From Candidatus Woesebacteria bacterium (lineage in GTDB: Bacteria > Patescibacteriota > Microgenomatia > UBA12405), in NCBI GenBank assembly GCA_035402805.1, contig DAONDY010000001.1, positions 253,672-317,671 of the forward strand: DNA of 64,000 nt, written 5' to 3'. The position numbers and the translations under genes are program-made. How positions within the stretch are numbered: the first letter of the stretch is position 1; each line of letters begins with the position of its first letter. Under the pieces are notes generated by a model, which saw only the letters and a list, made by a program, of their open reading frames with translations, had not been told where the DNA came from and did no database searches. This document shows, piece after piece, positions 11,399-56,858 of the stretch.

Positions 11399-12358
11399 TT
11401 ACAAACTTTTCAACTTTCCTTTCGTCTCTTGATCAAAAAATGACAACACACCTCCAAACAAAGCATTGATTATTCCTAAAATTCCCAAAAATGTCGACAT
11501 TAATAAAATACTTTCGTTTGAGCCTCCGGCCTGAGAAAAGAAAAACAAAAACAACTGTTCTCTGGCTCCAAAACCACCAATTGAAATCGGTAAAACTAAA
11601 ATCATTGAAATGATAGTCATAAAGGCAAAAATCGAAAAAATACTAATGCCAACCCCAAATTTCCAGCTAATAAACCATGCCTGCAAAATCCAAATTGTCT
11701 CGCTCATTAAAGAAATCAAAAGACATTTAATAATTTTTTTCTTATTTTCACTAGTTAATGAATCAAAAGCATCATCTAATTTGTGTAAAAAAGTAACTTT
11801 AGGCAAAAATTTTGATGCATCAAAAAAATAAATTACTAAATAAACCAATAAACAAAGAATTGTTAATACCACCAATAAATAAAAAATATAATCTGGAATA
11901 TTTATGCCTTTTTTTCTACTTACAACAGCCGAAATTAACGCCAAAAACATAAACATTGAAAATCCAATAAATCTATCTAATATTATTGATCCTAATACTT
12001 TAGTTTTTGGAATTTCTGAATATTTACGATCAATCACTATCCACTTCAACACATCGCCAGCTGCTGAAGTTGGAAAAATTAAAGAATAATATGAAGCTAA
12101 AAAACTTGCTCTAGTAAAAGTTAATATTGTTTTAATTTTTATTTTTGGAAACAAAAGTAAACTCCATCTAACCGAAATTAAAAACACTATAAAAAAACTA
12201 ATAATTATATTGCTTATCACAAACCATAAAGGTACTTCCCTTAAATTTTTAAAAAGACTTACTATATCAACCTTTCTAAAAGCAAAATAAATTAAAACCA
12301 CCGAAAATGTTATCCTGAAAAGTTTAGAAGTAAAAATTTTCTTAAAAATCTTTAACAT
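11399..12358 (-). CDS. flippase-like membrane protein (lysylphosphatidylglycerol-synthase TM-region / UPF0104 family)
   Basis: 319 aa with ~8 TM helices and sequence pattern typical of TIGR00374-like proteins that accompany glycosyltransferases. Confidence 0.45.
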   Translation of the reverse strand: MLKIFKKIFTSKLFRITFSVVLIYFAFRKVDIVSLFKNLREVPLWFVISNIIISFFIVFLISVRWSLLLFPKIKIKTILTFTRASFLASYYSLIFPTSAAGDVLKWIVIDRKYSEIPKTKVLGSIILDRFIGFSMFMFLALISAVVSRKKGINIPDYIFYLLVVLTILCLLVYLVIYFFDASKFLPKVTFLHKLDDAFDSLTSENKKKIIKCLLISLMSETIWILQAWFISWKFGVGISIFSIFAFMTIISMILVLPISIGGFGAREQLFLFFFSQAGGSNESILLMSTFLGILGIINALFGGVLSFFDQETKGKLKSL

Positions 12359-34139: not shown

Positions 34140-35456
34140 ATGATTCAAAAACTTAAAAATATTTTTATTCATCTACCAAAAAGTATTTTTTACAATTTCT
34201 ATTACGGTTTTCCCTCAAAAAAACTAACTCTCATCGGAGTTACTGGTACAGATGGCAAAACCACCACCTGCACCCTAATTCATGAAATTTTAAAACAATC
34301 TGGCCTAAAAACAGGATTAATTACCACTATTGGAGCCAAAGTTGAAGACCGGGAAATCGATACTGGTTTTCACACTACTACACCAGATCCATCTTTACTT
34401 CAAAAAATTTTGGCCGAAATGGTTAAGGCCGGTATGACTCATGTTGTTTGTGAAGTTACTTCTCACGCTCTTGATCAATATCGTTTTTTAGGTTGTCAAT
34501 TTGAAATTTCTGGAATTACTAATACCTCTCACGAACATCTTGATTATCATAAAAATTTAACCAATTACATCAACACTAAAGCCAAGTTATTTTCTATATC
34601 AAAAAGTGCTGTTTTAAATAAAGACGATCAATCCTTTGAAATTATTAAAAAACAAATTAAAACTCCCTTTAAAACATTTAGTATTAAAGAAAATTCCGAT
34701 TATCAAGCCAAAAAAATTAAGTTAGATCAAAATCTACTTAACTTTGAAGTCAACGATCAAAAATTTACTACCGATAGTAATTATGAATATCAAATTTACA
34801 ATATTCTTTTAGCTTTAGCCATTTGCCAAAAATTAAAAATTGATTTAAGTCTTGTTCAGAAAACCATAGAACATTTTCCTGAAACTAAAGGTCGTCGAGA
34901 AGAAATTCCAAATGATTTTAAATTTAAAACTATTATCGATTTTGCCCACACTCCTTTTGCTTTGGAAGCCTCACTTTCATCACTTAGAAAAATAGATAAA
35001 GGTAATCTTATTGTTATTTTTGGTGCCACCGGAGGACGAGACCAAAGCAAACGCCCTGAGATGGGTAAAGTTGTTTCTAAACAAGCTAATATTGCTTTTA
35101 TTACCGCCGACGATACTCGAAACGAAAAAATAGAAGATATTAATAAACAAATAATTAGCGGAATTGACCCCAAAAAATCAGAGTTGATCGATTATCAGGA
35201 AATAAAAAACAAAAAACAAATTCAAAATATAATTGAATTATCAAAACAAAAATTTATTTATTTTAATATTCCTAATCGGCAAGACGCTTTCAATCTAGCT
35301 ATAAAATTTGCCCAACCACAGGACATTGTTATTGCCTGCGGTAAAGGTCACGAAACCACTATTCTTCACGGCCGCACTGAATATCCCTGGTCAGAAGCCG
35401 AAGCTTTCAGAACCGCTTTTAGACTTAAAAAATTAAATAAAAATGGCTCAATTTAA
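34140..35456 (+). CDS. murE: Mur ligase, MurE-like (UDP-MurNAc-L-Ala-D-Glu:diamino acid ligase)
   Basis: GVTGTDGKTTT P-loop and Mur-ligase middle/C domains. Start moved to ATG 34140 just after the ftsI stop. Position after ftsI. Confidence 0.75.
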   Translation: MIQKLKNIFIHLPKSIFYNFYYGFPSKKLTLIGVTGTDGKTTTCTLIHEILKQSGLKTGLITTIGAKVEDREIDTGFHTTTPDPSLLQKILAEMVKAGMTHVVCEVTSHALDQYRFLGCQFEISGITNTSHEHLDYHKNLTNYINTKAKLFSISKSAVLNKDDQSFEIIKKQIKTPFKTFSIKENSDYQAKKIKLDQNLLNFEVNDQKFTTDSNYEYQIYNILLALAICQKLKIDLSLVQKTIEHFPETKGRREEIPNDFKFKTIIDFAHTPFALEASLSSLRKIDKGNLIVIFGATGGRDQSKRPEMGKVVSKQANIAFITADDTRNEKIEDINKQIISGIDPKKSELIDYQEIKNKKQIQNIIELSKQKFIYFNIPNRQDAFNLAIKFAQPQDIVIACGKGHETTILHGRTEYPWSEAEAFRTAFRLKKLNKNGSI

Positions 35457-36036
35457 CTTAAAAAATACCAAAAGTATTGAAGAAAATTATCAAAGCGGAC
35501 TTTTACCTCAAAGGAATGATAAAAATTCCTTTTACTTTCAAACGAGCAGTCGTTCTAATTTAGAAAATTTTAATCTTAGTTCAGAAAATCGCCGAATATT
35601 ACGAAAAACCGAAAATTTCACTTTCGAGAAAAAAAGCCTTAATGATTTTGACTATAATTTTAAAGTTCAAAAAGACATAGCTGGTTGGATAAAAAATCTA
35701 TCTTGGAATTTTCCCGTTAGCTCCGTCAAAAATGTTTTTAAAAATCATATTTTTAATTATCTATACATTTGGAAAGACGAAAAAAACGAAATTATTGCCT
35801 ATTCTTTGTGTTATTTTTCAAAAAATATCAGTCACATTGCTTATGTTTTTTATAATCCTGCCCTTGCTAATAGCAATTTACCAATTAGGCTAGTACTTCA
35901 AGCTATTATTGATAGTCAAAAATTAGGTTTAAAATATTGTTATCTCGGTCGTTTCTCCTTAGAATCCGGTTATTATAAAAGAAATATGCCTGGTTTTGAA
36001 TATTTTAAAGATAATAATTGGGTTACACTTAATTAA
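35443..36036 (+). CDS. GNAT-fold aminoacyl-tRNA-dependent transferase-like protein (ATE/Bpt C-terminal-like or Fem-like)
   Basis: C-terminal YCYLGRFSLESGYYKRNMPGFEYF...W resembles the ATE_C/Bpt LGYW..S.KM.YK..F.P.E pattern. Embedded between two Mur ligases. Confidence 0.4.
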   Translation: MAQFNLKNTKSIEENYQSGLLPQRNDKNSFYFQTSSRSNLENFNLSSENRRILRKTENFTFEKKSLNDFDYNFKVQKDIAGWIKNLSWNFPVSSVKNVFKNHIFNYLYIWKDEKNEIIAYSLCYFSKNISHIAYVFYNPALANSNLPIRLVLQAIIDSQKLGLKYCYLGRFSLESGYYKRNMPGFEYFKDNNWVTLN

Positions 36037-36039
36037 TAT

Positions 36040-37413
36040 ATGCACATCCATATTCTAGGCATCGCTGGTACGATGACCGCTCCTTTAGCCGTCGCCTTAA
36101 AAAAGGAAGGACACTTAATCACTGGTTCTGACCAAGAAAAAATTTATCCGCCTGTCAGTACTATTTTAAAAAAATCTAATATTAAAATTAATTCTCAAAA
36201 AATTGATTCTACTATCGATTTGGCCATAATTGGCGGATCATACTCCAGTTTTCAAAAAACCAAAGAAGAATTTGAGCAAATTAAAAAACTTAAAATTAAA
36301 TATATATCCGCAAGTGAGTTTATAGCTCAAAAATTAATTAAAGAAAATTCTGTTTTAATTGCCGGAACATATGGAAAAACTACCATCACTTCCTTAGTTT
36401 CCTGGATCTTTTGTCAATCAAATTTTAATCCAAATTATATGTTTGGAGGCGAAGCCATTAATCACTTTCCCTCTACCAATATTTCTTCGTCAAATTGGTC
36501 TGTAGTTGAAGCCGATGAATCAATTCACGGACTCGACAACCAAGCTAAATTTTTGTATTACCCAGTTAAGTTCTTAACATTAACTAGTGCTGATTGGGAA
36601 CACAAAGACTCATATTCCACAGAAATTGCCAATTTTAATGCTTTTAAAAAACTCATAACCAATGTTCCAGAAAATGGATTTTTACTCGTCAATTCTAAAG
36701 GTTTTCAAACTAAAGAGTTAAGCCTTTATTCTAAAACAAGAATAATCACATATAACTCATCAAATTCGGACTACTATCTAAAACATATAAAAATAAAAAA
36801 GAGTTATTCTGTTTTAAATATCAGAACCCCCAGAAATATTATTGAAATCAAAACTAAATTAATAGGTCAATTTAATTTTGAAAATATTCTAGCAGCAGTC
36901 GCTCTAACCGACAGTCTCAATATTAATCAAACTATTATCAAAAAGGCCATTTTCAATTTCAAGGGAATTAAACGCCGAATTGAAAAAATTTATGACCAAA
37001 ATAAAATTACCATCTTTGATGATTTTGCCCAATCTTCAAATAGAATTAAATCTACATTAGAAAGTATTAAATCTCATTTTCCCAAAAGAAATATAAAAAT
37101 TCTTTATCAACCTCATGCTTCCTTTATTCAATATAAAGAAAGCTTAAAAGATTTTAAAAACGCTTTCTCCTTAGCTTCTGAAATTGTTTTATCAAAAATA
37201 AATTACAACCATAACATTGATAAAAACAACCGCACTACTGCCAAAGATTTTAGAGATATTATCGGTTCAAAATTAGTTTATATACCGATAGACGAAGACA
37301 TTATTAATTTTTATAAACAAAACCTCAAATCTGGCGATATTTTAATAAATATGAGTTCTGGCGGTCTTAATGGAAACAACATTGTCAAATCTGTTATTAA
37401 TTATTTAAAATAA
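36040..37413 (+). CDS. Mur ligase of the MurC/Mpl subfamily (Mpl-like N-terminus)
   Basis: MHIHILGIAGTMTAPLA...GSD...YPPVST (Mpl/MurC-type N-domain) and a GTYGKTT P-loop. Confidence 0.75.
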   Translation: MHIHILGIAGTMTAPLAVALKKEGHLITGSDQEKIYPPVSTILKKSNIKINSQKIDSTIDLAIIGGSYSSFQKTKEEFEQIKKLKIKYISASEFIAQKLIKENSVLIAGTYGKTTITSLVSWIFCQSNFNPNYMFGGEAINHFPSTNISSSNWSVVEADESIHGLDNQAKFLYYPVKFLTLTSADWEHKDSYSTEIANFNAFKKLITNVPENGFLLVNSKGFQTKELSLYSKTRIITYNSSNSDYYLKHIKIKKSYSVLNIRTPRNIIEIKTKLIGQFNFENILAAVALTDSLNINQTIIKKAIFNFKGIKRRIEKIYDQNKITIFDDFAQSSNRIKSTLESIKSHFPKRNIKILYQPHASFIQYKESLKDFKNAFSLASEIVLSKINYNHNIDKNNRTTAKDFRDIIGSKLVYIPIDEDIINFYKQNLKSGDILINMSSGGLNGNNIVKSVINYLK

Positions 37414-37416
37414 TCT

Positions 37417-38745
37417 ATGTCTAGATATATCATAACCGGTGGTAATCAACTTAAAGGCGAAGTCTCTATTAGAGGCGCTAAAAACGCTAGTTTTAAACAA
37501 ATAATTGCCTCAATGTTGACTAATAAAACTGTTTCATTAAATAATATTCCTCAAATATCTGATGTAAAAATAACTTTAAGCATTGCTAAAAGTCTTGGTT
37601 GCCAAGCAAAACAAATAGGTGAACATTGCCTTGAATTAACTACTCCAAAAATAAATAAATCAATTGTTCCCAGTGGTACTGGAGAAAAATCTCGAACCTC
37701 TTTTATGTTTGTAGCTCCGCTTCTGGCCAGAACTGGTACTGCCACAATTCCATCACCAGGAGGGGATAAATTAGGCAACCGACCTCTCGATCGTCTTTTC
37801 GATTGTTTTTCTCAAATGAATATAAAAACTTCTGAAAAAGAAAACGAAATTACTTTCAACACCGACAAAATCATTGGGACTCATTACACTTTTACTAAAC
37901 CGTCACATACTGTTACTGAAGTAATTATTATGACTGCTGTTTTAGCCCAAGGTGAAACAATTATTGATAATGCTGCTCTAGAACCAGAAATTGATGATCT
38001 TATTTTAATGTTAAATGAAATGGGAGCCAAAATTGAAAGAGATCCATCCAATAACAAAAGAATTACCATCCAAGGCGTTTCTTTATTAAACGGAACTGAA
38101 CACAGCGTAATTTGCGATCGAAACGAAATTGTCACTTTCGCTTGTGCCGCTTTAGCCACCAAAGGTTCTATCTGCATTCTTAGAATAAAACCAGACGTAG
38201 TCAAAACATTTTTAGACGTTATAAAAAAAATGGGGGCCGAAGTTAAAGTTGGTAATGATGAAATCTGTATTCAATGGGTTAAACCATTAACTAATATAGA
38301 TATCGAAACTGGTCCAGAACCTATGTTTATGACCGATTGGCAAGCCATCTTTACTGTTCTATTGACCCAAACTGTAGGGTGTAGTTCACTTATTGAAACA
38401 GTTTTTCCAAATAGATTTCAACATATTGAAAATCTCAAAAAAATGGGTGGAAAATTCAATTTCTTTAATCCACCTGTTAAAGATCCAGATAATTATTATC
38501 AATTCAATAAAGAAAGTGATAATCCTCAATACTTCCACGGTGTAAAAATATATGGACCAACCATGCTTAAACCAGCCAACTTTGTTATTAGTGACCTTCG
38601 AGCCGGAGCTTCAGCTACTGTTGCCGCTCTAACAGCTCAAGGAAAATCAATTATTGATGGAGTTGAATACATAGAAAGGGGATATGAAAAATTAGCTGAA
38701 CGTCTTTCTTCTTTAGGTGCTAACATAGAATATATAAAAACGTAA
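37417..38745 (+). CDS. murA: UDP-N-acetylglucosamine 1-carboxyvinyltransferase
   Basis: IRGAKNASFKQIIASMLT N-terminus and two-domain EPSP-like architecture. 442 aa. Confidence 0.9.
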   Translation: MSRYIITGGNQLKGEVSIRGAKNASFKQIIASMLTNKTVSLNNIPQISDVKITLSIAKSLGCQAKQIGEHCLELTTPKINKSIVPSGTGEKSRTSFMFVAPLLARTGTATIPSPGGDKLGNRPLDRLFDCFSQMNIKTSEKENEITFNTDKIIGTHYTFTKPSHTVTEVIIMTAVLAQGETIIDNAALEPEIDDLILMLNEMGAKIERDPSNNKRITIQGVSLLNGTEHSVICDRNEIVTFACAALATKGSICILRIKPDVVKTFLDVIKKMGAEVKVGNDEICIQWVKPLTNIDIETGPEPMFMTDWQAIFTVLLTQTVGCSSLIETVFPNRFQHIENLKKMGGKFNFFNPPVKDPDNYYQFNKESDNPQYFHGVKIYGPTMLKPANFVISDLRAGASATVAALTAQGKSIIDGVEYIERGYEKLAERLSSLGANIEYIKT

Positions 38746-38749
38746 TTTT

Positions 38750-39784
38750 ATGATGCATTTATATCTTGGTTTATTACTTTTTTCTTTTTTAATCACTAGT
38801 ATTTTAGTTGTTCCTTTTATTAATCTTCTCTATAAACTTAAGTTTCAAAGACAAATTCAAAAAACTACCGACTTCCAAAATAAAAGAACCACTATTTTTG
38901 ATAAATTTCACAACCAAAAATCTGGCACTCCTGTTGGTGGCGGTCTTCTGATAATAGTCTCAGTTTGTTTAATGTTTATAATTCTTTTCCCCATACTTAA
39001 ATTCTCCAGAATCTTTATTTCCTCCAACTACAATATAGAGAACGAATTATTTATTCTCTTTTTTACCTTTATAAGCTTTGGATTATTAGGACTTTATGAC
39101 GACATCTATAAATTTTTCGGATTTAAAAAAACTGGCTTTTTCGGCTTGAAGATGGTCCACAAATTTATATTACAAATATTGATCTCTTTAGTTATTTCTT
39201 TAATGATTTATTTTAAACTTAAGATCGAATTCATTTATATACCCTTTTTAGGTCCCATTCACTTAGGATTTTTCTTTGTTCCTATTTCAACTGTTATTAT
39301 CACCGGTTTTGCTAATTTCTTTAATATAAGTGACGGCCTAGACGGGCTTTCTTGTGGATTATTAATGATTGCCTTATTTTCATTTTGGATTTTAGCCAGC
39401 AACTCTTTAGACACCGTCATTTCTTCTTTTCTGGCACTTTGGATTGGTGCTCTAATCGCTTTCTTGTATTTTAATGTTTATCCAGCCAGAATCTGGCTTG
39501 GCGATGTTGGCTCACTTTCCTTTGGAGCCACTTTTGCGGTCATTGCTCTTTTATTAGGAAAAATAGTCCCCTTAATAATTGTTGGCTCACCCTTCATTAT
39601 TGAAGGTATGTCCAGTGCTATTCAGCTAATTAGTAAAAAATATTTTAAAAAGAAAATTTTTCCAGCCGCTCCGCTTCATTTAACCCTTCAAAGTATTGGT
39701 TGGGAAGAACCAAAAATAGTTATGCGTGCTTGGTTGGCTGGAATTATATTAGCAATCTTTGGATTATGGCTGGGAATAAATTAG
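38750..39784 (+). CDS. mraY: phospho-N-acetylmuramoyl-pentapeptide transferase
   Basis: DD.YKF, NFFNISDGLDGL and C-terminal HH-like motifs. 10 TM helices. Confidence 0.9.
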   Translation: MMHLYLGLLLFSFLITSILVVPFINLLYKLKFQRQIQKTTDFQNKRTTIFDKFHNQKSGTPVGGGLLIIVSVCLMFIILFPILKFSRIFISSNYNIENELFILFFTFISFGLLGLYDDIYKFFGFKKTGFFGLKMVHKFILQILISLVISLMIYFKLKIEFIYIPFLGPIHLGFFFVPISTVIITGFANFFNISDGLDGLSCGLLMIALFSFWILASNSLDTVISSFLALWIGALIAFLYFNVYPARIWLGDVGSLSFGATFAVIALLLGKIVPLIIVGSPFIIEGMSSAIQLISKKYFKKKIFPAAPLHLTLQSIGWEEPKIVMRAWLAGIILAIFGLWLGIN

Positions 39785-40320
39785 ATTTATTAAAACAGGA
39801 GATCCAATATTATATTGGCTTACCTTATAGTAAAAACATCCTTAAGAACGGAAAAATAATTAAAGAACAATTTCTTGGGGGTAAAGGTAATTATCGTCAA
39901 ATTGCAACCGAAACCATTAGACTTGCTCAACAACAAAAAATAGATTTACTTAAACTAAGTAACCAAGAGTTCTATAATTTTCAAAAGAAAAATCATCTTG
40001 GAATAGATTGTTCTGGACTTGCCTGTCAGTTATTAAACTTTTATTTTCAAGCTGATTTAAATCCGCGAAAAACTTCAGCCGACATGTTAACATCTGCTCC
40101 AATTTCCCAAAAAATAACCGATTTGGATAAAATCCAAACAGGTGATTTAGTTCGCCAAAACAACGGCCATCATGTTTTATTTGTCATCGAAAAACAAAAC
40201 AACACCATTTACTACGTTGACAGTTCACTTAAAGGCAGGGGAGTAAAATATGGTAAGTTTGATATTACCGATAAAAATTTTATTCACCAAGGTTTTTATC
40301 GATTACTTTTCCTCGATTAA
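39766..40320 (+). CDS. NlpC/P60 (C40) family cysteine peptidase-like protein
   Basis: HLGIDCSGLACQLL (catalytic Cys motif) and TGDLV....GHHVLFVI (His motif). Start chosen at ATG 39766, overlapping the mraY end by 19 nt. Confidence 0.45.
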   Translation: MAGNKLDLLKQEIQYYIGLPYSKNILKNGKIIKEQFLGGKGNYRQIATETIRLAQQQKIDLLKLSNQEFYNFQKKNHLGIDCSGLACQLLNFYFQADLNPRKTSADMLTSAPISQKITDLDKIQTGDLVRQNNGHHVLFVIEKQNNTIYYVDSSLKGRGVKYGKFDITDKNFIHQGFYRLLFLD

Positions 40321-40461
40321 TTCTCGATATTTTAACGGGTTTATAGACAAAATCTCAACTTCAGTTCCACATTCAGGACACTCGATAATATCTCCCACCA
40401 TAGTATTTTCTGTTATTTCAATTTCGGTTTGACAATCTGGACAAATAACTTTTTCGTTCAT
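40303..40461 (-). CDS. LysW-like zinc-ribbon small protein (52 aa, 2x CxxC)
   Basis: Translation MNEKVICPDCQTEIEITENTMVGDIIECPECGTEVEILSINPLKYRELIEEK follows the LysW/ArgW carrier pattern CPxC..E.......GE.IEC.ECG.E.E.....P. It lacks the canonical C-terminal EDWGE tail. Missed by the 60-aa ORF cutoff. Confidence 0.45.
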   Translation of the reverse strand: MNEKVICPDCQTEIEITENTMVGDIIECPECGTEVEILSINPLKYRELIEEK

Positions 40462-40501
40462 GTTTTATTAAATTAATAACTAGTATAATTAAACTAATTA
40501 T

Positions 40502-41257
40502 ATGGCAAACACTCCTTTAATCAAATTAGAAGATGTTTATTTCAAAAGAGAAGATCTAAATGAAACTGGATCAGCTAAGGATCGGGCTATTATTTTTCAA
40601 ATAGAAAATCTCAAAAAACAAGGATTTAATAGTGCTGTAATTTCTAGCACTGGCAATGCTGCCATTTCTGCTTGCCATTTTTGTTTTTTGAACAAAATTA
40701 ACCTAACCGTTTTTTTATCACCCAAAGTAAACAAAAATAAATTAAATTTAATCAAAAACTGCCAAATAGTTTTCTCTAATAAAGCCATTAGCGATGCTAT
40801 TAAATTTGCTAAAAAAAATAACGCTTATCTTTTACGTCAATCAACTGACCCCAGTGCTTTAATTGGTTATCAAGAAATTGGCAAAGAATTAACCAAAGCT
40901 ACCAGCATTTTTGTTCCAGTTGGCAGTGGCACCACTCTTTTAGGAATCTCCCAAGCGGTTAATCCTTCAGTTAAAATGTTTGCCATTAAACCAGAAAACA
41001 CCTTATTAACTGATGCTCTCACTGTCAAATACCAACCCCTAAAAAACAGAGTAGCTTCTACTGTCAAAAATTCTGAAGGGTCAGAACTAATTATTCAAAA
41101 TAAAGAAATCTTGGAAGCTCAAAAAATACTAGAATCAAATAATATAAAGACCTCTCCCGAGGGAGCGTTGGCTTTTGCTGGATTTAAAAAAGCTAAAAAT
41201 CAAAAATTAGATATCGGTAGTTATCCAGTTGTAATCTTCACCGGATGTCAAAGATAA
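40502..41257 (+). CDS. short PLP-dependent enzyme of fold-type II (threonine-synthase/TrpB-like)
   Basis: TPLIKL...FKREDLNETGSAKDR (PLP-Lys motif), ISSTGNAAISA, PVGSGTTLLGI. Only 251 aa, lacking much of a ThrC C-terminal region. Confidence 0.55.
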   Translation: MANTPLIKLEDVYFKREDLNETGSAKDRAIIFQIENLKKQGFNSAVISSTGNAAISACHFCFLNKINLTVFLSPKVNKNKLNLIKNCQIVFSNKAISDAIKFAKKNNAYLLRQSTDPSALIGYQEIGKELTKATSIFVPVGSGTTLLGISQAVNPSVKMFAIKPENTLLTDALTVKYQPLKNRVASTVKNSEGSELIIQNKEILEAQKILESNNIKTSPEGALAFAGFKKAKNQKLDIGSYPVVIFTGCQR

Positions 41258-42360
41258 ATTTAGAAACTATCATTAATGATTCTCACTATTCCTTTTATTT
41301 TTTAGTGGTCGATAAGTTTCTAGACATAAATCTACCTCAAATCAAAAATTTTCACAAAATTTATCTTTCGGATTATTCTTCAATTAAAGTAAAAAATAGC
41401 GGAAAGCTTCTTAGTAATCAGAAAGTAATCGATTACATAAAATCGACATCAGGTTCTCTAATTCCCGCTATTATCCCTTTTAAGCCATCTGCTAAAATTG
41501 ATTTTTTATGTAAAAAATATAATTGGATAAATGTCAGTAATCCAGCCCCAATTAACCGATTTTTAGAAGATAAAATCAAGTTTGCCAAACTTTGTCAAAA
41601 ATATAAATTACCAATGATTCCTTTTGTCATTGGTAATTTTAATCAAAAAAACTTTTTAAAATATCAAAAATTATATGGCCCAAAATTGGTCTTACAAACT
41701 CATTTTGGTTGGGCTGGAAACAGCACTTTTTCTGCTTCGTCTTGGAACGAGATTAAAGATAAAATTTCTCCAGAAGTTATTACTAAATATAGCCCTTTTA
41801 TAAATTCTTCTTATTCTTTATTAAATAATTGTTGCCTTACTAAATTTGGTCTAATCCAAAGTCCTCCAGCTCTTCAATATACCGGAGTTAAACCATTTAC
41901 TCAAAACCCATTTACAACTGTTGGTCGACAATGGCCATCTTTTGCCCCATTAAAAATAATTAAAAAAATTAACACCATAACCAAAGATTTTTCCAAAATT
42001 TTAGAAGAAATCGGCTATAAAGGTTTTTTTGGACTTGATTTTTTAATCGATCAAGATAAAGTATTTTTATTAGAATGCAACCCTCGATTAACTGCCTCTT
42101 TTGATTTCTATACTAGACTCGAGTTAGGTCAAAAGATAACCCCTCTTTTTTATTTCCATCTGGCCGAATTTTTAAAACTTGATTATCAAATTGACATTAA
42201 ATTAGAACAAAAACGATTTGACAATAAAAAAATTATTGGCTCTGAATTGACTCCAAAAAATAAAAATAATAATTCTTGTCAGAAGCTAAATTTTTTTTAT
42301 CCTTTATCTAAAACCACTAATCCAATTTCTATCCCAAAAGATTTAAATGAAAAAAACTAA
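41245..42360 (+). CDS. ATP-grasp carboxylate-amine ligase (CPSase-type ATP-grasp), at the syntenic ddl position
   Basis: EDKIKFAKLCQKYKLPMIPF pre-ATP-grasp motif and GFFGLDFLIDQDKVFLLECNPRLTAS core. The E.NPR.S signature differs from Ddl's E.NT.PG.T. Confidence 0.55.
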   Translation: MSKINLETIINDSHYSFYFLVVDKFLDINLPQIKNFHKIYLSDYSSIKVKNSGKLLSNQKVIDYIKSTSGSLIPAIIPFKPSAKIDFLCKKYNWINVSNPAPINRFLEDKIKFAKLCQKYKLPMIPFVIGNFNQKNFLKYQKLYGPKLVLQTHFGWAGNSTFSASSWNEIKDKISPEVITKYSPFINSSYSLLNNCCLTKFGLIQSPPALQYTGVKPFTQNPFTTVGRQWPSFAPLKIIKKINTITKDFSKILEEIGYKGFFGLDFLIDQDKVFLLECNPRLTASFDFYTRLELGQKITPLFYFHLAEFLKLDYQIDIKLEQKRFDNKKIIGSELTPKNKNNNSCQKLNFFYPLSKTTNPISIPKDLNEKN

Positions 42361-43525
42361 ATCTCCTTTATTATTTTTAGTTTTTAGTCTAATTTTTATT
42401 GGCCTTATTTTTATTTCCATCTCTTCATTAAGTGAAGCCAATTCTACTATTGGTGACAAATTTTTCTTTATTAAAAAACAAGCCTTTTGGCTTATTTTAG
42501 GTATAATTTGTTTTTTTATAACTTCAAAAATTAAAATTGAAACAATCAAAAAATTTTCTTTTCTTTTTTATGCAGCCTCTATTTTATGTTTAGTTTTAGT
42601 TTTGATTCCTGGTTTTGGCAACGAAGCTCTTGGAGCCAAACGCTGGCTAAATTTAGGGTTTACTAGTATTCAACCATCAGAAATACTAAAACTTAGTTCA
42701 ATTATTTATTTTGCTTATCTATTTTCTAAAGAAGAAAAACGTCATATAAAAAACCTGATTTTTTATTTAGGAATTCCTTTTATTCTTATCATCATTGAAC
42801 CTAACTTGAGCACTGCTATTTTAATCTCTGCCATTGTTGGTTCTATTTATTATCTTTCTGGTGGCGATGTTATGCCTTTATTCGGAATTATCAGTCTTAT
42901 TTTAATTTTAAGTGTGCCATTAATCTTTTTTTCACCCTATAGATCGGCTAGATTAAAAACATTTTTAGAACCTCAACAAAATCAAGAAACATCTTCCTAT
43001 CATAGCAACCAAATAATACTAACTCTTTCTTCTGGGGGTCTCTTGGGAAAGGGTTTTGCTAATTCAGATCAAAAATATAAATTTCTACCTAAAATATCAA
43101 CCGATTCAATTTTGGCAGTTATTGGCGAAGAGGTTGGTTTTGTTGGTATTTTTGTAGTTTTATTAATTTATCTTTCTTTAATAAATTACCTGTTAAAATT
43201 TTCCAAAACTATAGATGACCAATTTCAAAGCCTTTTGGTTTCCGGCACTGCCTGTTGGATCGCCTACCAAAGTTTGATAAATATTTCTGCTATCGCTGCT
43301 CTTATACCCCTAACAGGAGTTCCTCTTCCTTTTATTTCCTATGGTGGATCATCACTATTAACCCTTTTTGTCGCCATTGGTTTAGTCAGAAATGTCGAAA
43401 AAAACCAAAAAATGCTGTTATACTCAAAGAGTGACCACAGTCAAACAAAAAAAAACGATCATTATCACCGGGACCCATCTCACCCCAGCCTTAGAACTCA
43501 TTCGACAACTAAAATCAGATCCTGA
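42347..43525 (+). CDS. ftsW: SEDS-family peptidoglycan glycosyltransferase (FtsW-like)
   Basis: 10 TM helices, periplasmic loop motifs SDSILAVIGEEVGFVG and PLPFISYGGSS. The 3' end overlaps the murG ORF. Confidence 0.8.
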   Translation: MKKTKSPLLFLVFSLIFIGLIFISISSLSEANSTIGDKFFFIKKQAFWLILGIICFFITSKIKIETIKKFSFLFYAASILCLVLVLIPGFGNEALGAKRWLNLGFTSIQPSEILKLSSIIYFAYLFSKEEKRHIKNLIFYLGIPFILIIIEPNLSTAILISAIVGSIYYLSGGDVMPLFGIISLILILSVPLIFFSPYRSARLKTFLEPQQNQETSSYHSNQIILTLSSGGLLGKGFANSDQKYKFLPKISTDSILAVIGEEVGFVGIFVVLLIYLSLINYLLKFSKTIDDQFQSLLVSGTACWIAYQSLINISAIAALIPLTGVPLPFISYGGSSLLTLFVAIGLVRNVEKNQKMLLYSKSDHSQTKKNDHYHRDPSHPSLRTHSTTKIRS

Positions 43526-44531
43526 AATTGATTGGCAAATAAATTATATCGGCCGAAAAAACAATTCTAGTGTTGACAATACTCCATCTATAGAATCCAA
43601 TATAATCCCTAAAATGGGAATAAATTTCTATTCAATTAATTGCGGAAAATTAGACCGCCGATGGATTCCAAATACCATTAGAGGTCTTCCCCAAACATTT
43701 AAATCCGTTTTTCAATCCTTTAAATTAATCAAAAAAATTAAACCAGACGTTATTATTTCTTTTGGTGGCTATGTTTCCGTTCCCATTATTATCGGTGGAT
43801 TTTTTAAAAAAATTCCTTCAATCACCCACGAACAAACCCTTACTAATAGTTTAACTACCAAAATTAATAGCCTTTTTGTCAATATAGTTGCCCTTTCTTT
43901 TAATAATCAAAAACAAAAAAATAGCCTCCCTAAACATAAAATAGTTGTTACTGGAAATCTTTTACGACAGGAACTTTTTAATCCTAAAAAATCAAAAATA
44001 GGGGATCAGATTGCTAAAATAAAAACAAAAATTATTTTTATTACCGCTGGTAACCAAGGTTCTCATGTTATTAATCTAATAATTGAACAATTATTACCTG
44101 AATTAAAAAATTATTTTATAATCCACCAAACTGGGAAAAACGATTTTGATAAATTTAATAAATTATCTAAAAAATATCCTAATTATCGAGTTTTCGACTA
44201 TATCGAAGCCAATGATATTGGTCATATTTTTAATAAATCAGAACTCATTATCAGTCGCTCCGGTGCTAACACCAGTCAAGAAATAGTCGCTTTAAACAAA
44301 AAATCAATTTTAATTCCCTTAAAAATCAGTCAACAAAATGAACAATTTTTAAACGCCACCTGGGTTAAAGAAAAAATCCCCGAATTTACCGAAATAATAG
44401 AAGAGAAAAATCTAAATAATATTAGCCTTTTAGGAGTTATAAAAAAGTTAATTTCTCTTAAAGTCAAAAATAATATTACCAAAGAAACTAACAATCCAAA
44501 ACTTTTAAGATTGATTCATGAAATTATTTAA
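43392..44531 (+). CDS. murG: UDP-GlcNAc:lipid I N-acetylglucosaminyltransferase (MurG-like, GT28)
   Basis: Two-domain GT-B, FITAGNQGSHVIN donor motif. The N-terminal G-loop is divergent (TGTHLTPA instead of GGTGGH). The true start may be downstream (GTG ~43431), which would reduce the overlap with ftsW. Confidence 0.7.
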   Translation: MSKKTKKCCYTQRVTTVKQKKTIIITGTHLTPALELIRQLKSDPEIDWQINYIGRKNNSSVDNTPSIESNIIPKMGINFYSINCGKLDRRWIPNTIRGLPQTFKSVFQSFKLIKKIKPDVIISFGGYVSVPIIIGGFFKKIPSITHEQTLTNSLTTKINSLFVNIVALSFNNQKQKNSLPKHKIVVTGNLLRQELFNPKKSKIGDQIAKIKTKIIFITAGNQGSHVINLIIEQLLPELKNYFIIHQTGKNDFDKFNKLSKKYPNYRVFDYIEANDIGHIFNKSELIISRSGANTSQEIVALNKKSILIPLKISQQNEQFLNATWVKEKIPEFTEIIEEKNLNNISLLGVIKKLISLKVKNNITKETNNPKLLRLIHEII

Positions 44532-50800: not shown

Positions 50801-51796
50801 ATGTCAAAATCATTATGGTTGCCAACTTTGATTAGTTTGTCAGTTCTGTTTTGTATCAACATTTTGATGATCAGTTCCATTGCCCCAAATTTAATTCTCA
50901 AACAACTTATCGCCTGGTTTTTAGGCTTAATTCTTTTTTTAATCGGCAAACAAATAAATTTAAAACAACTTAGCTCTTACAAATGGCCAATTTTTATTGT
51001 TTGCTGCGTTCTTCTCCTTTTACCTATAGTTTTAAACAGCATTACTCGAGGTTCTCGCCGTTGGATTTATTTAGCCGGTCTTACCCTTCAACCTTCAGAA
51101 ATGGTTAAGCCTTGGCTAATGTCATTTTTAGCCAGTTCCAATATACCCCTTCTTCATATCATTCCTGTTGCCATAATTATGATTCAACCAGATCTGGGCA
51201 GTGCTATTTCTGTGTTTTTTTTAATTATTCCCATAATCTTATATAACAAAAAATTGCTTCGACTTTCGCTTGTTTTAGGATTAATTTTTATTGTAATCTC
51301 CCCTTTAGTTTACAAATATGTTTTACATGATTATCAGCAAAAAAGAATTATTACTTTTTTAAACCCTAAAGCCGATCCTTTGGGTGAAGGTTATAATGTT
51401 ATCCAATCTCAAATCGCTATCGGTTCCGGTGGTTTTTTTGGAAAAGGTTATAAAAAGGGGACTCAAGGTCAATTACTTTTTTTACCAGAAAAACATACCG
51501 ATTTTATGTTCGCTACCACAGCTGAAGAATTAGGATTCGTTGGTATCATTATTGTTTTATTTGCCTATTATCTATTAATTAGCACTTTATTTAATAAAGC
51601 TTTTTCCACAGTAAACAGACCCTTATTTCTTTTTACTCTCGGAATTGCCATTCAAATTTGGATGCAAGCTTTCGTTAATATCGGGATGAATATCGGTCTT
51701 CTACCAGTAACTGGAATCCCTTTACCATTCATTTCCGTTGGTGGCTCATCCATAATGACATTACTTTTTTCTCTCGGAATTATCTATTCTTCCTAA
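50801..51796 (+). CDS. rodA: SEDS-family protein (RodA-like), second copy in window
   Basis: TDFMFATTAEELGFVG and GIPLPFISVGGSS motifs. 331 aa. Confidence 0.75.
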   Translation: MSKSLWLPTLISLSVLFCINILMISSIAPNLILKQLIAWFLGLILFLIGKQINLKQLSSYKWPIFIVCCVLLLLPIVLNSITRGSRRWIYLAGLTLQPSEMVKPWLMSFLASSNIPLLHIIPVAIIMIQPDLGSAISVFFLIIPIILYNKKLLRLSLVLGLIFIVISPLVYKYVLHDYQQKRIITFLNPKADPLGEGYNVIQSQIAIGSGGFFGKGYKKGTQGQLLFLPEKHTDFMFATTAEELGFVGIIIVLFAYYLLISTLFNKAFSTVNRPLFLFTLGIAIQIWMQAFVNIGMNIGLLPVTGIPLPFISVGGSSIMTLLFSLGIIYSS

Positions 51797-54352: not shown

Positions 54353-54416
54353 CTCAGTTGGTTAGAGCGTTTCGTTCACATCGAAGAGGTCACAGGTTCG
54401 AGTCCTGTAACAACCA
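54343..54416 (+). tRNA. tRNA-Val (anticodon CAC)
   Basis: Cloverleaf: acceptor GGTTGTT/AACAACC, D-arm GCTC-AGTTGGTTA-GAGC, anticodon arm TTTCG-TTCACAT-CGAAG, T-arm ACAGG-TTCGAGT-CCTGT. No encoded CCA. Confidence 0.85.
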
Positions 54417-56858
54417 CTTTTTAAACTCATCTCTATGGCCTTTCATTAAAACTTCATTGCCATAATTTAAAGCCGTAAAGTTATTGGCACAAATTTCAGA
54501 ATAATCTTTTTCATCTAAATCATTTCTATTTTCTTCTAAAATTTTAGTCATCTTTTCATAACTAATTGCCATATTTTCATTAATTCCTGAATATTTTTTA
54601 TATTTTAAACCAACCACTCTCTCGATTAAATTTTGATAGTTGTTAACTATTTTTAAACCACTTATTGCCTTATTTTTAAGGCATTTTTCAATTAAAGATA
54701 ACCAAATCGTTGTGTTATCTATAATTTTTTGACTAATATTTTTTTCGCTAGTTATCCTTCTAAAATTAAAAATACTTCTAATTAATTTTTTTGGTTGATT
54801 TTTATCTAAAGACTTCAGAGATTCTTTCAAGTCTTTACTGTTTTTATTTAAAACTAAAAGAGAATTTAAATCTTCCTTAATAATCGATTTTAAAAATAAA
54901 ATGTTATTTTTATCATTAACAATTTCACCATCATTTGGATCAACTTTAACTACCCCTTCCTCTCCATTAACGACATTCTTTTCCCAATACGACCATTGAT
55001 TATTGTCAGTATTACCAGTAACGATATGAATTAAGCCATTTCCACTTCCAATATAGTTGATGTTGCAAATTTTATAGTTGTTATTTTTAATAACCACAAA
55101 CCCATCCTTTTCCAAAATAGGGGAATCATTGTCACATTGTACAGAGTAATTAACCGGCGAACCAATGAAAAATACCAAAGTATTTTTTAGATTTTCATTT
55201 TGATCAATAATTTCAACCTGACTTAAGCCAATTTCCATCATCACTTGATTAACTGTTTTATCTACAATTTCCCCATGATTACTATCTAATTCCACAAAAC
55301 CATTTTTATCATAATTAGCACTTTTAATTAAAACCGTTCCATCACCTTCATTTGTATATAAAAAATTATTAATTCTTCCATCTGGCCAAATACCCAACAC
55401 CCTATCAAAAACATTATTGTTTTTTAAATTAATCGAATCTATTGTCTTAACACCATTTCCAACGAACAATTTTAAATTTACCCCCAAATCAACATTTGTA
55501 TTATTCTTTTCTATCAAATAATTATTTTTTGTTTCCAACTGACTCGTAAAATCAACACCATTTTTAGATACAAAACTAAAAGTTGGCAATAAATCTTTTA
55601 CAGAGGGAATATAAGTTCTAACTGCATCCATATCTGTTTTAGTGGTTAAACCCTTAAGTTTTAGTAAAATTTTAAAAGCAATTGAACTTATATTTGATAA
55701 ATCAGAAATCTGCCCGCCATTCCAAGCTTCATATGCATCTACAGATCCTAAGTGTGGACTACCCAAAGTAATAATTTTTTCTAGTCTAGTATCGTCTTTA
55801 TTATCTTCTGCCCAAATTCTAGCTGCTAATCCACCTAAACTGTGACCAATCAAAATAACCTTTTCACTCGAATTAATTTTTTGACCAATAAAATTATCTA
55901 AATCATTAACAATACTCGATAATGGTTTTCTCCAATCATAATTCCAAACATAAAAATCTTCATTTTCTTTCAAACTATTATCTTTTAAGGCTTCTATTAA
56001 ACCTTCATAATTTTTAACAAAAGGTGTCATTTTCCATTGATCATTATTGACATTTTTATCATAAACAATCGCCTCCGAGTTCCAACTCGCCCCTAAACCA
56101 GGGATAATAATTATTTTCGGTGTAGGGGTAGGGGTGGGGGTAGATGTAGGTGTGGGTGTAGAAGTCGGTCCTTCATCATAATTAAAATCACCAACAATAA
56201 GATTGTCAAATAAATTTCTAGTTGATCCATAACAAAAACTACCACCCCAATTATAGAAGCCAAAACTTCCAGTCAAAATAGGGTTTTCATCATTTAAATC
56301 TATCACTAAAACTGAATCAAAATATATTTTTATATTTGATGATATAACCTCAATTTTAACTTTATGAACCTCATTTTGTGTTAAACGTACTTTACTAGGT
56401 TCATTAAAAGTTGATAATGCACTATACCCGATACTGGAATTATATTTCCATAAAACAATCTCTCCTCCTTCAGACCAATCAGAATCATTAAACCTCAAAT
56501 TCAACATATAATATTCACTTCTATTTTCATTAATTCTAAAAACAATCTCTTGGTCAACACCATTTTCATTTATAGAGTCAAATCTAATCGAATAATCAGA
56601 TAAATTCCAAAAAGATTTAGCTATTAAAAAAGAAGATTGATACCAAGTAACCTCACCTAATAAATTACCATTTGATGGTGTCCAACTATTTTTTACTGAA
56701 GGATATTCTGAAGAGTGATCAACAAACAACTCCCAACTATCTAAACTGTCTCCATCAAAATTATCCGAAAAATATTCCATGCCTAAAACACCTTTGACAT
56801 TAATCATAAATGATAAAATCAAAAAGAGTGTTAAATATATTTTAGTTTTTAAATACAC
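54390..56858 (-). CDS. secreted multidomain protein: N-terminal lectin/glucanase-like beta-sandwich, Pro/Thr linker, alpha/beta-hydrolase lipase domain (LCAT/PGAP1-like, GHSLGG, YDWR)
   Basis: Signal peptide, PTSTPTPTSTPTPTPTP linker, IIPGLGASW...YDWR...GHSLGG lipase-type motifs. 822 aa. The 3' end overlaps the antisense tRNA-Val by 27 nt. Confidence 0.5.
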   Translation of the reverse strand: MYLKTKIYLTLFLILSFMINVKGVLGMEYFSDNFDGDSLDSWELFVDHSSEYPSVKNSWTPSNGNLLGEVTWYQSSFLIAKSFWNLSDYSIRFDSINENGVDQEIVFRINENRSEYYMLNLRFNDSDWSEGGEIVLWKYNSSIGYSALSTFNEPSKVRLTQNEVHKVKIEVISSNIKIYFDSVLVIDLNDENPILTGSFGFYNWGGSFCYGSTRNLFDNLIVGDFNYDEGPTSTPTPTSTPTPTPTPKIIIIPGLGASWNSEAIVYDKNVNNDQWKMTPFVKNYEGLIEALKDNSLKENEDFYVWNYDWRKPLSSIVNDLDNFIGQKINSSEKVILIGHSLGGLAARIWAEDNKDDTRLEKIITLGSPHLGSVDAYEAWNGGQISDLSNISSIAFKILLKLKGLTTKTDMDAVRTYIPSVKDLLPTFSFVSKNGVDFTSQLETKNNYLIEKNNTNVDLGVNLKLFVGNGVKTIDSINLKNNNVFDRVLGIWPDGRINNFLYTNEGDGTVLIKSANYDKNGFVELDSNHGEIVDKTVNQVMMEIGLSQVEIIDQNENLKNTLVFFIGSPVNYSVQCDNDSPILEKDGFVVIKNNNYKICNINYIGSGNGLIHIVTGNTDNNQWSYWEKNVVNGEEGVVKVDPNDGEIVNDKNNILFLKSIIKEDLNSLLVLNKNSKDLKESLKSLDKNQPKKLIRSIFNFRRITSEKNISQKIIDNTTIWLSLIEKCLKNKAISGLKIVNNYQNLIERVVGLKYKKYSGINENMAISYEKMTKILEENRNDLDEKDYSEICANNFTALNYGNEVLMKGHRDEFKKWLLQDSNL

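Follow-up and report, generated by a model that had tools for sequence, protein, structure and literature searches.

A conserved six-gene module in the dcw cluster of Microgenomates bacteria: a candidate replacement for MurC, MurI and MurD

The window analysed here, a stretch of 64,000 nucleotides from contig DAONDY010000001.1 of Candidatus Woesebacteria bacterium, contains a division and cell wall (dcw) cluster with six unusual genes. These encode an ATE-like protein, an Mpl-like Mur ligase, an NlpC/P60-like protein, a LysW-like zinc ribbon ending in EEK, a ThrC-like pyridoxal phosphate (PLP) enzyme and an ATP-grasp ligase. In related genomes the six genes are inherited together, they stand at the murC and the murI-murD positions, and they exclude those canonical genes within the cluster, whereas genuine MurE, MurB, MurA, Ddl, MurF and MraY are found along with them. 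The MurC, MurI and MurD steps supply and attach L-Ala and D-Glu, positions 1 and 2 of the stem peptide, and we propose, with a confidence that falls a little short of even, that the six genes are a non-orthologous replacement for these three enzymes. Five of them, all but the ligase, had been singled out from the sequence alone, and it is very probable that these five act in peptidoglycan-precursor synthesis.

The order of genes in the window is rsmH, ftsL-like, ftsI, murE, ATE-like, MurC/Mpl-type ligase, murA, mraY, NlpC/P60-like, LysW-like (on the minus strand), PLP enzyme, ATP-grasp, ftsW, murG, ftsQ-like, ftsA and ftsZ. This agrees with the classic dcw order proposed in the sequence-only reading, apart from murA, which has to be placed between the MurC-like gene and mraY. 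The five open reading frames are real, at the coordinates of Table 1 and with the folds first suggested for them, as judged by Pfam and NCBIfam profiles, hhalign and the conservation of motifs. Contig CAZCFP010000001.1 of the metagenome-assembled genome (MAG) GCA_964497985.1 carries the gene for the ATP-grasp protein of the window, whose relatives bear the names Candidatus Shapirobacteria or Woesebacteria (Microgenomates, candidate phyla radiation or CPR).

Distribution of the module and of canonical mur genes

Loci were gathered by scanning species-representative genomes with the MraY of the window, which gave 80 loci with MraY identities of 60-92%, together with loci from exact-protein look-ups. 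The interval between mraY and ftsW is spanned by 82 loci, and 72 of these hold a (NlpC)-LysW-PALP-ATP-grasp block, PALP being the family of the PLP enzyme, with MurD or MurI present there in none of the 72. Nine loci have MurD without the block, three of them together with the glutamate racemase MurI, and one interval is empty. A similar picture was obtained between murE and mraY, where an ATE-like gene and an Mpl-like ligase are found in 66 of 73 spanning loci and a true MurC, with no ATE-like gene, in the other seven. Mixed cases, with module genes beside MurC, MurD or MurI, were found in none of the 82 mraY-ftsW or 73 murE-mraY loci. The arrangement of the block is conserved down to about 33-37% protein identity, which is far beyond chance. 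The five genes are non-canonical, as the sequence-only reading said, and they recur within the dcw cluster throughout a large CPR clade.

The canonical relatives were checked with NCBIfam and Pfam profiles, giving 388 bits for MurC (cutoff 335), 389 bits for MurD (cutoff 212) and 52-70 bits for Asp_Glu_race, and two further contigs bearing MurD also have canonical clusters. Because block and MurD exclude one another in this way (72 against nine of the 82 loci), the block sits in the murI-murD slot, from mraY to ftsW, and not at the ddl position where the zinc ribbon, the PLP enzyme and the ATP-grasp ligase had first been placed.

The most complete module cluster reads ftsI-murE-ATE-mpl*-murB-murA-ddl-murF-mraY-NlpC-LysW-PALP-ATPgrasp-ftsW. 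Deeper-branching carriers of the module have MurB, Ddl and MurF in the cluster (L084, L085, L087, L098, L102 and L105-L110), and the only canonical cytoplasmic functions absent from those complete clusters are MurC, MurD and MurI. The Ddl beside the module scores 344-354 bits with NCBIfam, above the cutoff, in L084 and L085, and was identified by Blast in L105, L107, L108 and L110. The same six loci have MurF-type ligases, for which TIGR01143 is the top match at 236-270 bits, just below the subfamily cutoff of 288.6. Since a true Ddl accompanies the module within the cluster of these six relatives, the ATP-grasp enzyme is not a replacement for Ddl, as it had been taken to be.

An accessory role would be another way to account for the module. 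MurC, MurD and a source of D-Glu would then be encoded elsewhere in the genome, the module would modify the stem or supply a special residue, for example by substitution of the D-Glu alpha-carboxyl or by a tRNA-dependent branch, and the Mpl-like ligase would serve for recycling only. This is the alternative that survives best, but we consider it unlikely. It does not predict a perfect exclusion of MurC, MurD and MurI at the same cluster positions over both sets of loci, nor that the most complete clusters should hold every other cytoplasmic step and miss just these three, and it leaves the in-situ swap of MurC for an Mpl-type ligase unexplained.

The window itself has no recognisable murD, murF or ddl, as had been claimed. 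The E. coli MurD, MurF and DdlB proteins gave no tblastn match in the whole 64 kb beyond the two Mur ligases, and Pfam scans of the remaining large open reading frames found no MurD, MurF, Ddl or MurB. Loci of the Shapirobacteria type, including the window, no longer have murB, ddl and murF in the cluster and keep murA. Relocation of these three genes is more likely than their loss, because the retained MurA needs MurB. The absence of murF and ddl from the window is probably cluster erosion only, since murB too has gone from the cluster while murA stays.

Three further observations were made on these loci. Other wall-related genes can occur next to murE in relatives. A Cu-oxidase_4 (PgeF/YfiH-like) gene lies between murE and the next ligase in a canonical cluster (L074, 3345-4061), and an Amidase_3 gene lies ahead of the ATE-like gene in a module cluster (L084, 2617-3246). 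Many public records (L014-L018, L041, L079 and L080) bear the titles 'uncultured Gammaproteobacteria', 'Candidatus Methanoperedens', 'Bathyarchaeia archaeon' or 'Nevskiaceae', yet their dcw cluster is clearly of the Microgenomates type, and they are apparently mislabelled or mis-binned MAGs.

Module genes in other architectures

A full HMMER search with the ATP-grasp profile against 1.84 billion representatives returned 2,036 relatives. These searches brought up a PALP::ATP-grasp fusion from Patescibacteria (P0512) and ATP-grasp::NlpC/P60 fusions in four clusters, one of them from Peregrinibacteria. Such fusions indicate a joint action of peptidase, ligase and PLP enzyme. In other CPR lineages the trio of LysW-like, PALP and ATP-grasp genes stands beside a MurD gene. 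Locus L096, which is outside any dcw cluster, has the order MurD (258 bits, cutoff 212), LysW-like gene (ending ...ELINEEK, minus strand) and PALP::ATP-grasp fusion, and L101 has the order NlpC-like, divergent MurD-like, LysW-like, PALP and ATP-grasp. In three architectures, then, the trio goes with the MurD step. We had also considered the ATP-grasp enzyme as a direct analogue of MurD, and this idea was downgraded once the trio was found beside MurD or MurD-like ligases. The position of the trio next to MurD (L096) or a MurD-like ligase (L101) would mean, therefore, that it prepares the residue of position 2 rather than acting as a MurD analogue.

Two distant homologues of the ATP-grasp protein were set aside. 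One occurs alone (L100), and the other (L099) belongs to an unrelated MATCAP/7TM-transglutaminase system. The gene set of L099 (2075-10930) comprises 7TM_transglut, ATPgrasp_ST, MATCAP (tyrosine-carboxypeptidase-like), FGase, ATP-grasp, Ddl-like and GNAT genes, and looks like a separate peptide-tagging or modification system.

The ligase, the transferase and the peptidase-like protein

The ligase at the murC position had been described as of MurC/Mpl type, and this can be narrowed to Mpl-like from its blastp scores and from some, though not all, of the Mpl-specific residues. In blastp it scores 165 bits to E. coli Mpl versus 93 bits to E. coli MurC, and eight module ligases score 140-211 bits versus 81-113 bits, whereas the true MurC proteins of canonical relatives score about equally to both or higher to MurC. 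Its top match in the PDB is 3hn7, the Mpl of P. arcticus. The ligase has the Mpl-type motifs GSD..YPPxS, DDFA and MS[SN]GG (MSSGG in the window), sharing with Mpl the Tyr of YPP, the Phe-Ala of DDFA and the S-x-G of MS[SN]GG. In place of the MurC motif DDY[AG]HHP[TE] it reads DDFAQSS, with HHP changed to QSS, and the true MurC of relatives keeps HHP. Mpl joins preformed peptides to UDP-N-acetylmuramic acid (UDP-MurNAc), and the P. arcticus enzyme accepts L-Ala-D-Glu, weakly (PMC3060825).

The ATE-like protein has the ATE_C catalytic GNAT domain, with a fold nearest to ATE1, MprF and FemX, and is a probable aminoacyl-tRNA-dependent transferase. It gave no match to ATE_N, its top NCBIfam arginyltransferase score being 32.8 bits against a cutoff of 267, and it has neither the FemAB Pfam domain nor the twin-GNAT architecture. 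The suggestion that it is simply a Fem-like branching enzyme is not supported, as this would leave unexplained why the gene co-varies perfectly with the loss of MurC and MurD and the gain of the Mpl-like ligase.

In the NlpC/P60-like protein, 16 relatives all keep the Cys of G-x-DCSG and His136, with H or D152 of an invariant [H/D]152-S-S as the third position. The Pfam score is below the gathering cutoff (Table 1), and hhalign against canonical NlpC/P60 domains gave a probability of 84% and an E value of 7e-6, with Cys and His aligned. Inspection of the N-terminus showed no hydrophobic stretch resembling a signal peptide. The gene starts 19 nt inside the 3' end of mraY.

An Mpl-type ligase and a signal-less NlpC/P60 protein are the two hallmark activities of peptide recycling, and this raises the question of salvage. 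Episymbionts might import muropeptides from their hosts; the NlpC/P60 enzyme, like YkfC of B. subtilis, would trim L-Ala-gamma-D-Glu-X to L-Ala-D-Glu, the Mpl-like ligase would re-attach this to UDP-MurNAc, and MurE and MurF would rebuild the rest, leaving the trio and the ATE-like protein as a back-up or for editing. YkfC has the trimming activity required, and CPR bacteria are limited in amino-acid biosynthesis. The acceptance of L-Ala-D-Glu by Mpl and the retention of MurE, MurF and Ddl also fit. However, four of the six co-varying genes would have no necessary role, and none of the loci examined has a peptide transporter or an LD-carboxypeptidase linked to the module. The two kinds of fusion described above put the peptidase with the ligase and the PLP enzyme, not on its own. 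Salvage therefore seems to us improbable.

The zinc ribbon, the PLP enzyme and the ATP-grasp ligase

The four Cys of the LysW-like protein are invariant in 72 distinct sequences, and its C-terminus follows the pattern ...E-L-[IV]-E-E-K. The ending is EEK in 69 of the 72 and ETK or EQK in the other three, down to 44% identity, and the EEK tail recurs in two unrelated genomic contexts, L096 and L098. In the window the protein ends ...RELIEEK, with a tail about six residues shorter than that of LysW. In LysW of Thermus and Sulfolobus a C-terminal acidic extension ends in EDWGE, the terminal Glu being the attachment site. The LysW-like protein is a zinc ribbon with four Cys that matches Pfam Zn_ribbon_LysW well above its cutoff (Table 1), but it lacks the EDWGE tail and falls below the NCBIfam equivalog cutoffs for LysW (41.2 against 53.2 bits for TIGR01206, 39.5 against 75 for NF041070). 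Neither a RimK-type LysX/ArgX partner nor LysZ, LysY, LysJ or LysK was found as a neighbour at any locus. A scan for promoters and terminators in the divergent region between the LysW-like and PALP genes gave nothing above chance.

The PLP enzyme keeps the catalytic Schiff-base Lys26, and the motifs GS.KDR, SS[ST]GNAA, PV[GS]SG and LTG are invariant. The top NCBIfam matches are ThrC-like and all far below their cutoffs (33.4 against 167.1 bits for TIGR00260, 92 against 358 for PRK08329), so that by sequence it belongs to the PALP superfamily only and is not a ThrC equivalog. The window protein is also N-terminally shorter than the deep-branching forms, which have 311-314 amino acids. The ATP-grasp protein has an intact ExNxR motif, and the enzymes structurally nearest to it are amino-acid and peptide ligases, among them BesA, a gamma-glutamyl ligase, and PylC, a Lys-epsilon-amine ligase. 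The Ddl families TIGR01205 and Dala_Dala_lig_C are not among the profile matches of the 371-aa protein.

A minimal, soluble pathway could be built from these parts. The PLP enzyme would be a racemase of free glutamate, or of another amino acid, in the place of MurI, the ATP-grasp protein would be an L-Ala-D-Glu dipeptide ligase or a direct analogue of MurD, the Mpl-like ligase would attach the product, and the zinc ribbon would be only structural or regulatory. Such a scheme suits a block in the murI-murD slot and an ATP-grasp protein structurally near L-amino-acid ligases and Ddl; moreover, fold-type-II PLP racemases exist, and serine racemase is among the weak PDB matches. We nevertheless find it slightly more doubtful than salvage, since it explains neither the near-invariant C-terminal EEK tail nor the obligatory ATE-like and NlpC/P60-like partners, and in L096 the adjacent MurD would make a dipeptide ligase superfluous.

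The explanation first offered makes the ATP-grasp enzyme a substitute for Ddl whose substrate comes from the PLP enzyme, has MurF replaced too, and gives the ATE-like protein a Fem-like branching role. It is very improbable given the genuine Ddl and MurF in six module clusters, the place of the block in the murD slot, the lack of any Ddl profile match, and the absence of murB from a window that keeps murA, which points to relocation rather than loss. Equally hard to sustain is a classical amino-group carrier protein (AmCP) system of the LysW kind for lysine or arginine biosynthesis, lying in the dcw cluster by happenstance: the Pfam match of the ribbon and the nearby ATP-grasp gene speak for it, but the ribbon has neither the tail nor the equivalog scores of LysW, the ATP-grasp protein is not of RimK/LysX type, its biosynthetic partners are missing, and in all three architectures the module goes strictly with Mur genes. 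The other idea raised in the sequence-only reading, a LysW-style carrier co-opted into wall synthesis, is viable, and a specific version of it is the one that we prefer below, without the EDWGE tail and the LysX and LysZ/Y/J/K partners of the model.

Gene content of the window

The features of the cluster are collected in Table 1. MurE is kept in module-bearing and canonical relatives alike, and both kinds of relative have it without the N-terminal UDP-binding domain. In the window its alignment begins at about position 74-100 of the TIGR01085 profile, and E. coli MurE aligns from residue 95 in tblastn. N-terminally short MurE proteins of about 400-440 aa are also encoded in L080 (3877-5103), L094 (2850-4112) and L085 (8752-9993), and the MurF proteins of relatives are likewise short at the N-terminus (378-415 aa, with alignments from about profile position 60).

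Table 1. Genes of the dcw cluster from murE to ftsW, with positions in the window and profile scores
Feature	Position	Strand	Profile match or model
MurE, 438 aa, without N-terminal UDP-binding domain	34140..35456	+	TIGR01085 351.8 bits (cutoff 257.3)
ATE-like protein, 197 aa, GNAT fold, probable aminoacyl-tRNA-dependent transferase	35443..36036	+	
Mpl-like Mur ligase ('MurC*'), 457 aa	36040..37413	+	murC TIGR01082 239.7 bits (cutoff 335.1); mpl TIGR01081 186.8 bits (cutoff 388.7)
MurA	37417..38745	+	TIGR01072 412.7 bits (above cutoff 392.7)
MraY	38750..39784	+	Pfam Glycos_transf_4 101 bits; TIGR00445 168.8 bits
NlpC/P60-like cysteine peptidase or transferase, cytoplasmic, 184 aa	39766..40320	+	Pfam NLPC_P60 19.5 bits (cutoff 23)
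LysW-like zinc ribbon, 52 aa, candidate carrier	40303..40461	-	Pfam Zn_ribbon_LysW (PF21344) 50 bits (cutoff 27)
ThrC-like fold-type-II PLP enzyme, 251 aa	40502..41257	+	PALP 119.8 bits
ATP-grasp carboxylate-amine ligase, 371 aa, amino-acid/peptide-ligase structural type	41245..42360	+	ATP-grasp_3 27.3 bits; model pLDDT 93
FtsW, downstream boundary of the murD slot	42347..43525	+	FTSW_RODA_SPOVE 309 bits

The start of murG is ambiguous, as the longest open reading frame (43392-44531, 379 aa) overlaps ftsW by 134 nt and public gene calls start at about 43614 (305 aa). Elsewhere the window has genes for glycosyltransferases and tRNA synthetases, a second SEDS gene and others of this kind. This second SEDS (RodA/FtsW-family) gene, at 50801-51796, lies downstream of ftsZ and directly after the gene for IleRS, a synteny kept in L001, L006, L008 and L010. 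A large surface-polysaccharide locus (5142-26175) has a UDP-glucose dehydrogenase, a Wzx-like flippase, an epimerase, about ten GT1/GT2/GT4 glycosyltransferases, two Wzy_C-like proteins, a mannose-1-P guanylyltransferase and an LPG_synthase_TM protein (11399-12358). An 822-aa protein encoded on the minus strand (54390-56858) combines an N-terminal domain like 3-keto-disaccharide hydrolases with an LCAT/PGAP1-type alpha/beta-hydrolase (lipase-like) domain.

Discussion

In its general form, the replacement that we propose is that the trio makes or prepares the residue of position 2 and that the Mpl-type ligase attaches a preformed peptide containing this residue to UDP-MurNAc, after which MurE and MurF would proceed as usual. 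We hold this general form to be nearly as probable as not. Of the specific schemes, the most coherent is a carrier route in five steps, each drawn from the chemistry of the families, and we think it unlikely. The ATP-grasp enzyme would tether a carboxyl of glutamate to the epsilon-amino group of the invariant C-terminal Lys of the LysW-like protein, and the PLP enzyme would racemise the free alpha-amino-acid end, in a manner of 'racemise-and-trap'. The ATE-like enzyme, from a family whose acceptors are of the N-terminal Asp/Glu type, would then transfer L-Ala from Ala-tRNA onto the alpha-amine of the Glu. The NlpC/P60 enzyme, whose family cuts gamma-D-Glu-diamino-acid bonds, would free L-Ala-D-Glu, and finally the Mpl-like ligase would couple the dipeptide to UDP-MurNAc. 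Perhaps in lineages that keep a MurD or MurD-like ligase beside the trio (L096 and L101) MurD would take the product of the trio directly. That carrier-based and partly tRNA-dependent synthesis of positions 1 and 2 replaces MurC, MurI and MurD throughout the clade, or alternatively that it places a residue other than D-Glu at position 2, is conceivable, although we do not think it probable.

Several points weigh against the replacement, and in particular against its carrier form. The exclusion is shown at the level of the cluster, and the search with the MurD profile returned only MurDs of the canonical lineage, at 54% identity or more, so it cannot speak to an absence from module-bearing contigs. 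The metagenome scan with the MurF of a module-bearing relative reached near relatives only, and gave the co-occurrence of Ddl and MurF with the module, not the location of murF in Shapirobacteria. The trio coexists with MurD or MurD-like ligases in L096 and L101, hence the trio itself is no analogue of MurD. The NlpC/P60 domains in the fusions are canonical and not close to the NlpC-like family of the window, as there was no hmmsearch match. The Mpl-like ligase is below both curated cutoffs (Table 1) and is without the His376-His377 (His-His) motif, the SAFFDK loop and the EPRSNT of Mpl. The LysW-like gene is on the opposite strand, and the PLP enzyme of the window has an internal deletion of 16 aa (after ...KMFAIKP) in comparison with all 14 aligned relatives, which is not an assembly error because the same sequence is present in five independent assemblies. 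With regard to chemistry, we know of no precedent for tethering to the epsilon-amine of a C-terminal Lys, nor for racemisation by a PLP enzyme on a protein-bound residue, both of which were deduced from family chemistries. True LysW holds its cargo through the amino group of the cargo, and with binding in that style the PLP chemistry would therefore be blocked.

The cytoplasmic Mur pathway (MurA-F, MurI, Ddl) is, to our knowledge, held to be near-universal in wall-bearing bacteria, with a single known alternative for the D-Glu step, MurD2/MurL. If our proposal is true, the module would be a second and far more radical alternative to MurC, MurI and MurD, present across a clade. Primary cell-wall synthesis would then be seen to draw on carrier logic of the LysW type and on tRNA-dependent chemistry of the ATE type, and the module would show that an Mpl-type 'recycling' ligase is able to become an essential entry enzyme. 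It bears on the supply of D-amino acids in genome-reduced CPR bacteria, and possibly on an unusual stem in their peptidoglycan. The proteins of the module are all small and soluble, so the hypothesis is open to direct testing. No description of such a gene set from CPR, Microgenomates or Patescibacteria came up in the literature searched; papers on pseudomurein ATP-grasp enzymes and a paper on lipocone proved unrelated to the module.

Relation to known systems

The module resembles the LysW/LysX AmCP systems of Thermus, Sulfolobus and Streptomyces in that a small zinc ribbon, from one Pfam family in both cases, is paired with an ATP-grasp ligase and with a hydrolase for release; the conserved tail at the C-terminus also suggests that the ribbon reaches into active sites. 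It differs in that the tail is ...ELIEEK and not ...EDWGE with its terminal Glu, in its ATP-grasp type, and in its partners, which are a fold-type-II PLP enzyme, an NlpC/P60 protein and an ATE-like protein rather than LysZ/Y/J/K; the context is peptidoglycan, not lysine, arginine or secondary metabolism. In CysO-CysM-Mec, and in BtrI/J/K/H/G of butirosin biosynthesis, a small carrier is combined with a ligase for activation, a PLP enzyme that works on, or together with, what the carrier binds, and a releasing peptidase or transferase. The proposed module would follow the same carrier logic, but the carriers of these systems are ubiquitin-like or an acyl carrier protein instead of a zinc ribbon, the activation chemistry and products differ, and they have no Mur linkage.

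Compared with ATE1/Bpt and FemX/MprF, the ATE-like protein is just 197 aa long, lacks ATE_N and scores far below the arginyltransferase equivalog cutoffs, and unlike ATE1/Bpt its gene is embedded between murE and the Mpl-like ligase. With recycling by Mpl and YkfC, the module shares a ligase nearer to Mpl than to MurC, having the YPPxS, DDFA and MS[SN]GG motifs in common, and a signal-less NlpC/P60 partner. In contrast to recycling, the module ligase, which is below the Mpl equivalog cutoff and without the His-His, SAFFDK and EPRSNT elements, takes the place of murC within the dcw cluster. It seems to be the sole ligase of MurC/Mpl type there, which would imply an essential biosynthetic role rather than one in recycling.

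The closest precedent is MurD2/MurL of Xanthomonas, an alternative D-Glu step that is encoded next to a murD-type gene and consumes ATP, in organisms without a Glu racemase (PMC8788868). The present system differs in its PLP enzyme, ATP-grasp ligase, zinc ribbon, peptidase and tRNA-type transferase, and in its Microgenomates form neither MurD nor MurC is found in the cluster.

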